A DNA stretch of 64,000 nucleotides from Eledone cirrhosa (GCA_964016885.1 OZ024740.1:53444001-53508000), one strand, 5' to 3'. Positions 1 to 64,000 are shown, counted from the stretch's first letter. Notes: generated from the sequence alone by a model not told the origin. Translations and numbers: made by a program.

Positions 1-1208
1 ATATGGTAGTCATGCTTTTCTCAAGTACGTTAATAACATAAATGGGGATAGTTGGCTGGAATGAAGAACTAAAACCAATTCGTGATGTTAGCTTTCCGGA
101 AGCTTAGAAATGCTCTCCATCGCTTTCTCCAAGTTCTTATATAATCTATCGGTTTTGTTGTGACTAAGCACGAAATACGATATCTTTGTGAAAATTTGAA
201 GTGACATTATTTCTATTCTCAAGAGTGAAGAGAAATGGCTCTAAAGAAAGCTAGAAATATCGCTGTCATTTCGGAACAAAGATCTTATCTTTTATTACGT
301 AGTTTTCCCCGTTTTTCCTTCTAAAAAGTTGGTGTGTAATATAGTGTATATTTTATTAAGAATAGAGTACATTAAAATAATCTTCTGATAAAGGATAAAA
401 GAACTGAATGAAATTTGAAAAAAAAGTTTGCAGTCGCGATCGATCATTTTGAATCTGTTGTCTGCATATGTACCCTCCAACTCTATATTAACAATGCATA
501 TTTTAACATTCTATTTTTGAAACAATAGTTTTACGTACATTTCTCAGTAATTTATTTCAACTACATTTCTTCTTTGTCATATTAGATTCCTGGTTTCTGC
601 ATAATTCGTAGGTGGAAGCAACTGTCATAACAAATGCTGATCTTTAGCATTCGCAGTTTCTAAAAAGAAAAAAATTTATTTCAGTCTATTGTTTGCTTAA
701 TTAGTAATTAAATCAAATAATTATGAAAGAAAATCGTCCATTTTTTGGGGTTTTCCATTTTAAATAGCATGTAGAAAGGCAATGTTTCCATTAATGTTTA
801 TATATATGTTGGTCTTACAAACTTAGATGATAAAAAATAATCACGATTGGCGTATTTTTCTTTCCTATTTCAATGCAAACTTTTATCATGCATAGTAGTA
901 AATAAAGAATTCTGAACTGGTTAATTCTATTGAAAATATATTATGGAAAGTTATTGTAAATCTCACTATTATTTTTACTTTGAATATGACGTTATGATTC
1001 TTTTCTTAATCTTCGTCTTTCTCACATACATCCTTTTAACATTGGTTCATTGTATTGTCTACAGACTGATGTCAGATGTTTGGAATTATTGTATTGATTT
1101 AGTAGTGAAATTATGAATGATTTAGTAGTGAAATTTTGAAGACCTTACGCTATTGTTTTAAAGTAGTGACTATGTCACTTACTTCATTTTTCAATAAACA
1201 AAGGGAGA

Positions 1209-1256
1209 TAAGCTGACAGATCTCTGTTTCATACTGTTGGTATTCCTCAGAGCTTA
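1209..1256 (-). ncRNA. Type I hammerhead ribozyme, canonical core, GUC site
   Basis: Minus strand: taagct-CTGAGGA-atac(caaca)gtat-GAAAC-agagatct-GTC-agctta; stems I, II and III all pair. Confidence 0.85.
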
Positions 1257-1467
1257 GCTGAAGGTCTTCAAAATGCTTTTAATTAAGCATACAGTGTATT
1301 ACTAAATACACTATATATATATTCATATATACATCGCTACTCAGAGCACCAATTCTAATTTTCAATATTTGCTGGACCGGCATCCGCTCTGTATAATCAG
1401 TTCCTGATTATTACTGGAATTCTATAAGAATCCAACATTCATAATTTTCAACAGACAAGGGGAGTGC

Positions 1468-1515
1468 TAATCTCTGAGGAATACCAACAGTATGAAACAG
1501 AGATCTGTAAGCTTA
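1468..1515 (+). ncRNA. Type I hammerhead ribozyme, GUA site
   Basis: taatct-CTGAGGA-ataccaacagtat-GAAAC-agagatct-GTA-agctta; one stem I mismatch. Confidence 0.8.
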
Positions 1516-1872
1516 TCTCCCTTTGTTTGTTGAAAAGAGAAGTAAGTGACATAGTCACTACTTTAAAACAATAGCGTAAGGTCTTCAAAATGCTTTTATT
1601 TAAGCATACAATGTATTACCAAATACACTATATATACATTCATAGATATATATATCGCTATTTCAGAGCACCAATTCTAATTTTCATATATATATATATG
1701 TATATATTAATAATAATAAATTTCAAGACTAAAATCCAAAGAGGGCTCGATAAGGATAAATATATATCAAATATATAAGAACCGTAGAACAAATATTTAT
1801 TAAAATAACAGATTAAAGTTTAAGCAAAGAATCGCTGCTTTCACCCTTAACGGGATCTTCTGAAACTAAGTT

Positions 1873-1923
1873 AGTTTCAGAAGATCCCGTTAAGGGTGAA
1901 AGCAGCGATTCTTTGCTTAAACT
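1873..1923 (+). ncRNA. Hammerhead-like motif with variant CAGAAGA core (inverted copy at 1817-1867)
   Basis: agttt-CAGAAGA-t-ccc(gttaa)ggg-t-GAAA-gca..tgc-TT-aaact; same repeat family recurs at ~17079-17225, 44095-44295 and 57044-57105. Confidence 0.6.
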
Positions 1924-60730: not shown

Positions 60731-60928
60731 TATATATATATATATCACAGAAAAAAAGAGAATCAGTTTTGCGACGAATGGAATTTATTGAATTTATTGG
60801 AGATATTACAATCGTTTCTCTGGCGACCAGCTCGAGGCACAATCGATGTGGTAATCGAACCTGACTCTGAAAATCGCAAGGTCGTCAGATACGTCTAGAT
60901 TCTACGAAGCAGATTTTGGTAGAATCAA

Positions 60929-61024
60929 GACATATCTGAGGACCTTGCGATTTTCAGAGTCAGGTTCGATCACCACATCGATCGTGCCTCGAGCTGGTCG
61001 CCAGAGAAACGATTGTAATATGTC
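60929..61024 (+). ncRNA. Type I hammerhead with ~60-nt stem II domain; inverted copy at ~60803-60895
   Basis: gacatat-CTGAGGA-ccttgcga...tcgccaga-GAAAC-gatt-GTA-atatgtc; family also at 2215-2420 (-) and 62620-62825 (-). Confidence 0.75.
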
Positions 61025-61439
61025 CAATAAATTCCATTCGTCGCAACACTGATTCTCTTTTTTTCTGTGATATCATACTCTGCTCTATGGTAGCATCGAG
61101 TGCTCAAACGGCCTACCGCAGACGGATGCTTTAAGCATCCAAGACCAATTATATATATATATATATATATATAAACGGAAAAAATGTAACGAAATTTCAT
61201 TTCCCACTCTTAGTACGGCTGTTACTTAAATATAAGTATGTACACGTACGTATATATATGTATACAGACGTACAGTAGTATGTATATATATATATACATA
61301 CATGCACACATATATATATGTACGTATGGATTCACCGAACATTTATTATAATGTTCGATGTGTTTGTAAACAAACATCCCGTATTAAGACGTAGTGTCCA
61401 GCAACCATCGTTGCTCGTTTGTTCAACACTGACAAAGGA

Positions 61440-61482
61440 ACGCTGTACTAGTTTCAAGCTTATTAGCTATCGTAAGCAACGT
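61440..61482 (-). ncRNA. Decayed minimal hammerhead (CTTACGA core) inside a direct/inverted repeat module 61170-61915
   Basis: Minus: acgttg-CTTACGA-t-agct(aata)agct-t-GAAAC-ta-GTA-cagcgt. Confidence 0.55.
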
Positions 61483-64000
61483 ATACCTTCCTGCCAGATT
61501 GTTGAACGTATATACTTACCTTATGCATATTAACGGCTGAGTAGCCCAATTTGCATATCGAGTGGGTTAATCGGCCGGGTGCACCGAAAACGATAAACGG
61601 AAAAAATGAAACGAAATTATATTTCCCATTCTTAGTACGGCTGTTACTTAAATATAAGTATGTACACGTACATACATATATGTATACAGACGTACAGTAG
61701 TATGTATATATATATACATACATGCAAACATATATATATATATATGTGTACGTATGGATTCACCCAACATTTATTATAATGTTCGGTGTGTTTATAATAA
61801 ATGTTCGGGGAATCCATACGTACATATATATATGTGTGCATGTATGTATATATATATACATACTACTGTACGTCTGTATACATATATGTATGTACGTGTA
61901 CACACTTATATTTATATATATATATATATATCATAAAACATGTCTTTAGAATCACTAGATATAAGCAATAAGCCTACCCGCCGTAAGCAACTAATCACAT
62001 CCTTTCTAACTTGACTGCTGCCACGTCACGATTTTTAACCATTTTTGAATGTATTTTTGGCGCGATCACTTTAGAAAATTAAATGTCTAATTTTGAGTTC
62101 GCTCCTGGTGAGTCCGAAGCTCTAGACATTCCCTGTTATCGGATGTCTTAAAATACGGATGAAACGATGGTAGAGATAATTAGGTATGTACGCATTTCTT
62201 CTAAGTTTGAATTTACACCTAATTGTGTTTAGTTGACTGTATATCTGGTCGATTTCTACATGCTGTCGAAATGTTAGATAAATACTCTATCGTAGCTACC
62301 GCGAAGAGGCTGCTTTCGGTTATTTGTCGGAGATTTCTTCATAGGAGTCTTTATTCTTATAGCTTGGTCTAATTGATTTTTTATATGGTTAATTATGCTA
62401 ATTGGGAGAGGAAATGGTATATATTATATCTAGTGATTCTAAAGACATGTTTTATGATATATAGCTCTGATTATTTAATTTATTAATTCTTCATTGAGCC
62501 ACAACGTGACCTGTTGCAAAACATATATATATATCTATGACTTTTTATATATATGTAAACCTTTATATATATATATATATATATATATATATATATATAT
62601 ATATATATATATGTAGTAAGGTTGCTTGGATGCGTCCATAAGCGGTATGCCGGTTGAAGCACTCCTTCGGAGTAGAGTATGATAATATGTAAAACGAAGA
62701 ATCAGTGATGCATCGGATCACAATTTATTACATATTACAATTGTTTTCTCGGGCGAACAGCTCGAGGTGCGATCTGTTTGTGGAGCGAACCTGACTCTGG
62801 ATTCGCCAGTTCCTCAGATACGTCTAGTGATTTCGAAGCAAATCCTCTTTCTGCTAGACTCCGACCCTTCAAATTTCTATCATCTGCCATCATCTTGTTT
62901 GCGCGGCACTCCGATTGGTTGATAGTTCCAGACGTCATCAAATCTGCCCACTGACCATTTCCATTCAGGCGTGACACCCTAATCCCGTCGCCAGAAATTA
63001 CTGCTATGTGTGGGAGAGGTGTTATGAACTCTCTTGCCCTTCCCTGGCTTGCCTGTCTCCCTACACATATACACCCACATGCACGTGTATCACACATATA
63101 CAGACATTCCGAGTCATTAATCGCACACTTATCTTTATATATATATATAAAGCGCAGGTCAAACATTTTCTCAGCAACTACGTGGTTCTGGTTTCAATTC
63201 CGCTAAGCGACACCGTGGCCAAATGTATGTTATAATAACTTCAAGTAGACCAATCAATGTCTTGTTCACTGAAATTGCAGACCTAGTTGGGTTCTCACAA
63301 AAAGGGGTGTATATCATCTAAGGAACATCAAGGTAACACGTTTTTGATGGTGTTATATACTCACCTGATCTGCAATTATTCTGAAATAGGCGTACTAATT
63401 TTCGTATACTTAGCCTTCGTGTAGGTAGTTAATTAAGATATATATATTAAGTGCATTAAGCAGTGGAAGTATACTATAAAGTTATATATATATATATATA
63501 TATATATATATATATATATATATACAGAGTGCGTAATTGTATACAAATGGGTACGTCAATTTCAGAATACTACGAAGGGCGTGTGGTTATATAAGCACAT
63601 GAAATATGTTTCCTTGTGCTTATTCATATGATATACACGCCGTCTGGTGAAGAACCAACTAGGAAATCCCCATTTTCTGATATGTTTACACGACTACACA
63701 TGAAAAAATACCATTAAAAAATCATGGTTACCCTCTCTGTAATATGCACATATAATTTTATCATAAATTTCGTCGGATTAGTGCACTTCTTTATATATAT
63801 ATATTTTTTTTTTTTACCATTTGACATTCATTTTTTAATTTTTTAATATATTCTTTTACTATTTTTACCTTTTGACATTATTTTCCTAATGATACCCCTT
63901 TAAATATATTTTTTTAGATGTAGATTGATACGATAGTTCTTCGAAATGCACATTATTTTTTTCCTCTCCTTTTGATCTTCAAACTTCCACACATCTTTCG

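Follow-up and report, generated by a model that had tools for sequence, protein, structure and literature searches.

Hammerhead ribozyme motifs beside TA tracts in Eledone cirrhosa and their probable relation to Penelope-like elements and retrozymes

Hammerhead motifs in the window

The window studied here is a stretch of 64,000 nucleotides from one strand of the Eledone cirrhosa genome (GCA_964016885.1, OZ024740.1:53444001-53508000). Between its (TA)n tracts lie islands that carry hammerhead ribozyme motifs, together with an array of 310-nt monomers and the decayed open reading frame (ORF) of a Penelope-like element (PLE). An original prediction made from this sequence had counted about 35 such motifs from at least ten unrelated families and proposed that the TA microsatellites serve as landing pads for ribozyme-bearing retroelements. 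Our analysis indicates that the motifs are very probably type I hammerhead folds of the 3' pseudo-long terminal repeats (pLTRs) of PLEs and of non-coding tandem retrozymes, and that a PLE endonuclease-reverse transcriptase is likely to have placed all of them in (TA)n. The feature is real and well supported, and its members are new representatives of these two known kinds.

A relaxed descriptor for type I folds, which accepts canonical, U3-A8 and U4-variant cores, was run with a pass threshold of score >=9, and 300 dinucleotide shuffles of the 54.4 kb of non-microsatellite window sequence served as the null. Twenty matches reached the threshold when the 310-bp array is counted once (33 with all 14 monomers), compared with 0.38 +/- 0.6 and a maximum of 3 in the shuffled sequence. 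The observation behind the prediction was confirmed, with matches far above the control. Among the 37 sites named in the prediction (23 single sites and 14 array units), 30 passed, 27 with a canonical or U3-A8 core (1209, 1468, 2774, 4067, 6725, 9886, 10477, 18280, 19288, 39749, 40215, 60803, 60929 and the 14 array units) and three with a U4A core (1817, 1873 and 47507). Four others are core-damaged copies of real families (2701, A6C; 6185, U16.1A; 61440, G5U; 62730, an extra A after GAAA), two are weak (6880, score 7.3; 45923, score 6.8 with a poor stem I), and at 17751 a full core stands on a stem I of merely 2 bp, with degenerate relatives. Three sites at or above the threshold had been missed (4577-4617, 5156-5207 and 43906-43970), as had several damaged or half copies.

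A (TA)>=6 tract lies within 300 nt of 18 of the 20 window matches and of 46% of background positions, in line with the predicted enrichment. Blastn comparison sorts the named sites into about 11 groups by sequence, and it shows A to be related to K, C to C2 and N to P, as well as I1-I3 and O-O3 among themselves. The ribozyme islands are real, but the prediction had not told non-coding retrozyme arrays apart from truncated PLE ends, and the description of the families as unrelated does not hold, since they comprise pLTR ends of several PLE clades and retrozymes, some of them clearly homologous. Rfam reported one hammerhead among the 150 of 415 matches listed (HH9, 40204-40275, 33.1 bits against a cut-off of 52), and this list was dominated by microsatellite-derived miRNA models.

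Predicted fold and catalytic core

Over the window and 400 kb of other stretches of the genome, the 3-8 core pair was C-G in 36 matches, U-A in 15, U-G in none and C-A in two (null means 0.5-1.5). Helix III was a perfect palindrome in 18 of 41 distinct matches and in 1 of 100 chance matches. Family E (43800..44010, + strand; hammerhead at 43906-43970), which has a second window copy outside the named sites with C3A damage (4344..4405, + strand), showed double-sided changes at 8 of the 10 stem II positions among 40 distinct relatives, although these sequences are related and the changes do not count as independent events. When the arms were swapped between sequences, pairing fell from 5.55 to 4.3 (maximum 4.7 in 1000 swaps); stem I showed one-sided changes only. 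By core and covariation, the motifs classify as predicted type I hammerheads.

The U4A core is a private change in the window copies of I1 and I3, whose relatives are canonical, and is present in every displayed full copy of family B. A fixed U4A core did not come up in a word search of the available text of PMC3088659, where U4C is mentioned. The U3-A8 core and the palindromic helix III of PLE hammerheads are described in passages of PMC4209133.

Penelope-like elements behind five families

A search of the genome for GIY-YIG endonucleases gave 10,596 candidates, 150 of which were scored, and the predicted link to PLE ORFs was found for families B, D, F, I and M, each with an endonuclease upstream. 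In the window, the ORF at 19400..21350 (+ strand) holds a piece of reverse transcriptase (RT) and, at its C-terminal end, a GIY-YIG domain, with a weak RVT_1 match, a GIY-YIG match, several stops and frameshifts. The adjacent family M segment (19095..19351, - strand), which has a U3-A8 hammerhead at 19286-19332, a 37-nt tail and an end in TA, is the inverted 3' pLTR of this PLE; the same segment follows the 3' untranslated region of the element in L002, L003 and L009, and its last 37 nt are missing from many copies.

The family D hammerhead (4064..4105, + strand; U3-A8 core, palindromic helix III) occurs downstream of an endonuclease in L147, L151 and L154, and its intact relative, L264, contains a 938-codon ORF with RVT_1 and GIY-YIG domains flanked by two family D pLTRs that are 99% identical. 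Family F (4577..4617, - strand) lies in the 3' pLTR of a PLE, about 350 nt after the endonuclease in L162, L266, L267 and L272, where long ORF pieces were seen. In relatives of D and F, a CX2-5CxxC linker precedes the endonuclease; this linker is broken in the family M ORF of the window. Another endonuclease type, represented by pieces, lies upstream of I2 and I3 in L198, L207, L017, L142 and, in the window, at 47204-47296, where the C-terminal end of the endonuclease is followed by the I3 hammerhead at 47505-47551 (feature 47204..47551, + strand; U4A). The window copy of I2 is a 3' pLTR (45865..46150, + strand) with a core at 45927 and a weak stem I, whose relatives have the endonuclease upstream, and that of I1 (6880..6929, + strand; U4A) scored weakly.

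Family B forms a foldback (1700..1943, both strands) with U4A hammerheads at 1816-1868 (-) and 1872-1924 (+), and a further U4A copy with a damaged helix III lies at 17078..17129 (+ strand), within 16880-17235. It represents the 3' pLTR of a PLE with a third endonuclease type, found in pieces about 1 kb upstream in L081, L083, L084 and L089. In this endonuclease the conserved E is preceded by CxxC and the conserved N followed by CxH, an evident CCHH is lacking, and there is no Pfam GIY-YIG match. Families B, D, F, I and M are classed with the endonuclease-containing (EN+) PLEs, on the basis of an ORF with RT and C-terminal GIY-YIG (complete in D, decayed in M, in long pieces in F and as endonuclease pieces in I and B), pLTR direct repeats with a hammerhead (D, in L264), and an inverted copy with an optional tail (M). 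Elsewhere in the genome, L263:1275-4562 is an uninterrupted PLE ORF of 1096 codons, and the same descriptor found no hammerhead in its 7-kb locus.

The remaining families of the window are foldbacks and solo motifs. Family C (2613..2869, both strands) has TA on both sides, an intact hammerhead at 2774-2841 (+) and the A6C copy at 2701-2768 (-); its relative C2 (18190..18420, both strands) has a hammerhead at 18279-18353 (-). Family O (60745..61150, both strands) carries hammerheads at 60800-60895 (-) and 60929-61024 (+), and its arms end about 76 nt apart, both at short TA runs; the related O2 (62730..62823, - strand) has the extra A after GAAA. The foldback and tail anatomy of C2 and O fits an EN+ PLE, and a single relative of O, about 79% identical, follows an endonuclease (L022). 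Family G is a foldback at 5138..5266 (- strand) with a hammerhead at 5156-5207, stem II of which is weak in the window copy. Family P (61440..61482, - strand) is G5U-damaged with canonical relatives, family L (17749..17830, + strand) is a candidate with the 2-bp stem I, and L2 (59546..59636, - strand) has a U4C core and is weak. The family S foldback (18872..19056, both strands) retains a hammerhead remnant at 18935, in which GAAA has become GAGA and stem I is lost. The family Q foldback (41000..41212, both strands) is truncated inside stem II, so that only the 3' half of the hammerhead is left; other copies of Q lie at 5455-5568, 33247-33364 and 41830-42005.

Non-coding tandem retrozymes and their two-armed arrays

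Families K (310 nt), N (466 nt), H (540 nt) and J (591 nt) form dispersed tandem arrays with 97-100% identity, while the K relative A (319 nt) was seen only as partial tandems. In the window, the K array (12099..16389, - strand) consists of 13.8 identical monomers with 14 canonical hammerheads (the first at 12232-12274 and the last at 16262-16304) in a single arm, and its 3' end lies in (TA)14. Family N (39690..40479, + strand) has 1.7 units with hammerheads at 39749-39793 and 40215-40259. Family H (6016..6855, - strand) has 1.6 units with an intact hammerhead at 6725-6804 and the U16.1A-damaged one at 6185-6264. Family J (9494..10636, + strand) has a short inverted arm and U3-A8 hammerheads with a long stem II insert at 9885-9974 and 10476-10565. 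Family A (1133..1685, both strands) joins a partial tandem of the retrozyme-like unit (+) to an inverted arm (-), with hammerheads at 1206-1259 (-) and 1466-1517 (+), the latter with one stem I mismatch. The monomers of these five families have a GC content of 0.34-0.41 and are predicted to fold as circles with z of -3.1 to -12 against 30 shuffles each. Monomers in tandem that encode no protein and each carry a type I hammerhead, together with low GC and a self-paired circle, place the five, on these predicted folds, among the non-LTR retrozymes.

Twenty hand-picked K loci were compared. Seventeen are two-armed, with arms that diverge from a head-to-head junction. In 16 of these 17 the arms stop at two fixed sites about 35 nt apart, one at unit position ~2 (with ambiguity up to 11) and the second at ~35-44, and almost all of these ends lie in TA; L125 is interrupted by a gap, and one end of L117 abuts another repeat. 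In 11 loci the tail is on the longer arm, and in five the longer arm is without it. Eight loci have one variant in every monomer of both arms, and three more have it in every monomer that covers the position. At least six haplotypes were distinguished (90G, 148G, 156A, 159A, 167G and 250G), each uniformly fixed per array, and none of the 20 arrays mixes two, which points to a single-monomer bottleneck. The N loci are similar: two arms were seen at four of the five, ending at ~314 and ~378-385, and fixed variants occur in all three with a readable variant table.

At one K locus, an RTE-type RT ORF (L126:200-1103) enters the TA tract at the array and does not resume beyond it, which suggests that DNA was deleted when the array inserted or later. 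The 310-nt unit occurs in 20 public runs under 17 organism labels, with no RNA run among those listed, and horizontal transfer was therefore considered. In three of 16 runs with other labels (X3, X5 and X10), the unit has a depth of 10-64 and pieces of the RTE long interspersed element of this genome 0-35, compared with 10^5 in X1. These depths fit trace DNA of the same species and were rejected as evidence of transfer; the three runs, with their low-depth high-copy repeats of this genome, probably reflect contamination.

A proposed insertion route and its alternatives

We propose that the PLE endonuclease would cut both strands of a TA tract and that each cut end would prime a reverse transcript at either of two sites inside the RNA, which define the tail. 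The two cDNAs would join head to head, and most would stop early, leaving a solo or foldback pLTR of which only the ribozyme-bearing end remains. For retrozymes, the template may be a ribozyme-made circular monomer, copied repeatedly on both strands from both break ends, and new insertions would re-use the TA tracts flanking older ones, building a dense mosaic. Passages of PMC11167929 report that an anole PLE cuts and extends both strands in vitro, with two internal start sites defining the tail. The two-armed K signature seen at 16 of 17 loci matches the Penelope insertion signature and would fit one circular RNA copied on both strands. We lean slightly towards a circular monomer as the retrozyme template, and give an even chance to the fuller proposal that PLE enzymes insert the protein-free retrozymes, cutting both TA strands and sending two reverse transcriptases round one circular RNA, to yield head-to-head identical arrays.

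The inverted arm might alternatively arise by fold-back self-priming of a single cDNA, with endonuclease resolution at the tail. Such self-priming has been proposed for PLE palindromes (in passages of PMC3846280), the tail has been ascribed to endonuclease-mediated resolution (in those of PMC8557442), variants common to both arms would follow naturally, and near-mirror junctions exist at L115, L119, L122 and L126. However, since a fold-back copy cannot outgrow its template, one and the same end would be expected on the long arm at every locus, whereas the tail is present there in 11 loci and missing in five; most junctions join different monomer phases; and the anole protein was reported (PMC11167929) to extend both strands in vitro. 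We therefore regard fold-back priming as unlikely.

It is also unlikely, to a similar degree, that the arrays derive from long linear read-through transcripts or from local unequal crossover, with circles as a by-product. Amplification by unequal crossover is discussed in the main text of bioRxiv 10.64898/2026.07.22.740005, identical monomers would also be expected from a homogeneous source array, and two loci have a variant in just two monomers. In contrast, the uniformly fixed haplotypes without mixing among the 20 arrays favour passage through a single monomer, both arms end at fixed insertion sites, and the monomers fold as circles better than their shuffles.

Several points weigh against the route through PLE enzymes and circular RNA. 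Singleton K variants are scattered, and a variant is present in 2 of 7 monomers of L128 and in 2 of 6 of L274, so that one perfect circle would be sufficient only if conversion followed or the template was in error. Having been chosen from the best matches, the 20 K loci over-represent young, long arrays; for K, N, H, J and A, no autonomous partner came to light; and an autonomous PLE is reported to insert in vitro without needing ribozyme cleavage (PMC11167929), while self-cleavage of the present motifs is a prediction. No consistent upstream endonuclease was seen for C/C2, E, G, O, P, Q, L and S in the loci searched, a set that left aside the further C2 and E loci. The D and F relatives appear Neptune-like, and the family B endonuclease appears to carry Hydra-like motifs, both assignments being made by motif.

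Genome-wide abundance and the origin of the TA tracts

Forty unselected 10-kb stretches at round-number positions of the 3.0-Gb genome (400 kb) gave 39 matches, compared with 2.3 in shuffles. Density depended on the contig, with 35 matches in 240 kb (24 stretches of the four largest contigs) and four in 160 kb (16 stretches of the others). A stratified estimate puts the genome at about 253,000 motifs (bootstrap 144,000-366,000), a figure from the relaxed descriptor that includes old copies. The window is about three times denser than the genome average, matching its (TA)n content (7.4%, against 3.7% in the 40 stretches), and is an ordinary sample of the genome. The predicted collection of ribozyme-bearing families is thus real but not special to the window, as the unselected stretches hold the same families. 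Much of the apparently unique DNA between TA tracts is retroelement ends. Published hammerhead counts reach up to 120,000 in axolotl, more than 6,000 in a coral and about 5,000 in a mussel, according to the sources as available, and the present genome seems richer than these, with the caveat that descriptors differ.

In the unselected stretches, TA lies within 200 nt downstream of the ribozyme in 21 of 36 cases and upstream in 6 of 36, against a background of 10%. In the window the numbers are 14 of 20 downstream and 11 of 20 upstream, against 23%; TA occurs on both sides here because of the foldbacks. Counted by family, the 3' end of the element meets TA at 32 of 37 loci for K, 16 of 16 for J, 15 of 17 for H, 25 of 31 for C2, 22 of 24 for B and 10 of 11 for M. 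Lower figures for E (13 of 20), I2 (8 of 16) and O (13 of 17) are in part due to reference sequences that stopped before the true end. With TA downstream of the ribozyme, element ends abutting TA and five families linked to PLEs, the view of (TA)n as a landing pad for many ribozyme-bearing families is supported.

We then consider whether insertion with target duplication itself propagates the TA tracts, as the original prediction also held. A survey of target-site duplications (TSDs) at 83 insertions gave 22 candidates, all TA-like and ambiguous, and only L276 and L277 were informative: these are N insertions outside TA, with TSDs of 11 and 9(-11) bp and no TA tract. Among 76 insertions surveyed for empty paralogous sites, one credible case was found (L251), the others being microsatellite artefacts; its empty paralog has 23 TA units, while the filled site has 19 + 22. 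The empty tract of L251 and the TSDs of 9-11 bp indicate that TA tracts pre-exist.

That TA tracts are mainly made by insertions seems to us distinctly improbable. In its favour, TSDs of this size exist, the filled L251 site has more TA units than the empty one, and a family match adjoins 33 of the window's 49 long TA blocks, a count that is partly circular because families were defined beside TA, and in which a few matches are spurious. Nevertheless, a duplication of 9-11 bp adds only about five TA units and is too short for tracts of 20-100 bp without slippage, the long tract was already present in the empty paralog, the insertions at L276 and L277 have no TA tract at all, and 16 of the 49 blocks lack a family match. 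The TA tracts thus serve as landing pads rather more than they result from insertion; with each event the tract is likely split and lengthened by about five TA units, and slippage would do the rest.

Finally, the probability that the motifs arose as chance folds of DNA rich in AT and in repeats is negligible. In favour of this reading are the relaxed descriptor, seven of the 37 named sites with scores under the threshold, false matches from an AT-rich satellite in L264 and a single sub-threshold Rfam match among those listed. It is already contradicted by the window scan (a 50-fold excess over shuffles), the scan of the unselected stretches and the core-pair counts, and against it also stand the compensatory core pair, the palindromic helix III, the stem covariation and the fixed pLTR position.

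Comparison with known systems

PLE tails, inversions, TA bias and TSDs of 8-10 bp have been described (passages of PMC8557442 and of PMC3846280, Arkhipova et al. 2013). Like the pLTR hammerheads of EN+ PLEs described by Cervera and de la Pena 2014 (PMC4209133), by Craig et al. 2021 (PMC8557442) and in PMC3846280, as far as these texts were available, the present motifs have a type I fold, a short palindromic helix III and the U3-A8 variant. They also share the predominance of solo motifs from 5'-truncated copies, the inverted 5' copy, the optional tail, the (TA)n bias and TSDs of 8-11 bp, as well as RT with a C-terminal GIY-YIG and, in families D and F, the CX2-5CxxC linker. Unlike the published elements, the density here is about 1 per 12 kb with the relaxed descriptor, every displayed full family B copy has the U4A core, and in some families tails exceed the published 30-40 nt (about 55 nt in C2, 70 nt in N, 76 nt in O, 85 nt in B, 88 nt in H and 165 nt in J). 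Family B resembles Hydra clade PLEs (passages of PMC8557442) in CxxC before E, CxH after N, the lack of an evident CCHH, the hammerhead and (TA)n insertion, a comparison that covers the endonuclease, whereas the clade is also marked by RWK/DKT RT motifs and a CxCX5C linker; it differs in its U4A rather than canonical core and in having no Pfam GIY-YIG match.

Retrozymes and their proposed mobilisation by PLEs are described in the main texts of Cervera and de la Pena 2020 (PMC7229834) and of Li, Clavereau and Pollet 2026 (bioRxiv 10.64898/2026.07.22.740005), where the mobilising enzyme and the circular template of animal retrozymes are likewise proposed. In common with these metazoan non-LTR retrozymes, the present ones are tandem repeats that encode no protein, with a single type I hammerhead in every monomer, a GC content below 45%, strong predicted self-pairing as circles and coexisting PLEs. 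They differ in monomers of up to 591 nt (150-450 reported), known here from sequence alone, and, from the retrozymes as published, in insertions with arms that diverge, 3' ends at two fixed sites and targets in TA. In the main texts, the word "inverted" does not occur in PMC7229834, nor "tail" in bioRxiv 10.64898/2026.07.22.740005. A two-armed, tailed retrozyme insertion was found neither in literature searches nor by word search in the main texts, although supplements, notably files S1/S2 of Craig et al., may hold such data. Literature searches likewise returned nothing relevant on retrozymes of octopus or other cephalopods, nor on twin priming or rolling circles in Penelope, with the same reservation about supplements. 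The available text of PMC13282606, a repeat annotation of Octopus vulgaris, lists 31 recently active Penelope-like families, and the word ribozyme is absent from it.

The element PAc (Poseidon of Anolis carolinensis; Frangieh et al. 2024, passages of PMC11167929) is similar in cutting and extending both strands, in having its genomic tail set by two internal start sites and in its AT-rich target. It differs in being an autonomous element with a linear RNA and dispensable cleavage, whereas here the signature is on protein-free multimers. Young retrozyme arrays carry this PLE insertion signature with exact predicted start sites, and the same genome has apparently intact PLE ORFs, which makes an in vitro test feasible. 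If the proposal is true, the arrays would supply, from the genome itself, direct evidence of the rolling-circle route driven by PLEs that has been put forward. The genome concerned holds about 250,000 hammerheads, including an abundant young family with a fixed U4A core. The interest lies in this testable link between retrozymes and a PLE enzyme rather than in the window itself.

Rearranged hammerheads and other features of the window

Non-circularly permuted hammerheads, with blocks C, G and S in non-circular order and with covariation, are described in passages of PMC10085705. A simple three-block scan of the window and the 40 stretches, which extra-strand forms would escape, found no rearranged hammerhead (SGC, CSG or GCS); one single-copy CSG candidate at 39283 was near chance level. 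Degenerate hammerhead-like copies with relatives elsewhere lie at 62108-62185 (+), 24990-25150 (-) and 51305-51440 (+). Foldbacks without a hammerhead were seen at 26478-26692 and 28755-28903, and the first of these ends in TA and resembles the 3' end of family M (82% over 50 nt). A run of N marking an assembly gap (56845-57043) lies beside a truncated family B copy.

The decayed RT at 22386-24330 (- strand; RVT_1, E 4.5e-28) belongs to a non-LTR retrotransposon and not to a PLE, and we take it to be L1/Tx1-like. A Mariner-like remnant beside TA (10852-11745) has terminal inverted repeats of about 93 bp (10855-10947 and 11650-11742) and an HTH_48 match. The region 47919-50260 is a partly duplicated repeat with a 37-bp minisatellite at 48754-48915 and 49576-49842, and a tRNA-like match lies at 34552-34622. 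An abundant family resembling short interspersed elements, often in tandem, occurs at 28303-28528, 36840-37020, 46501-46931, 52693-52820 and 56358-56765.

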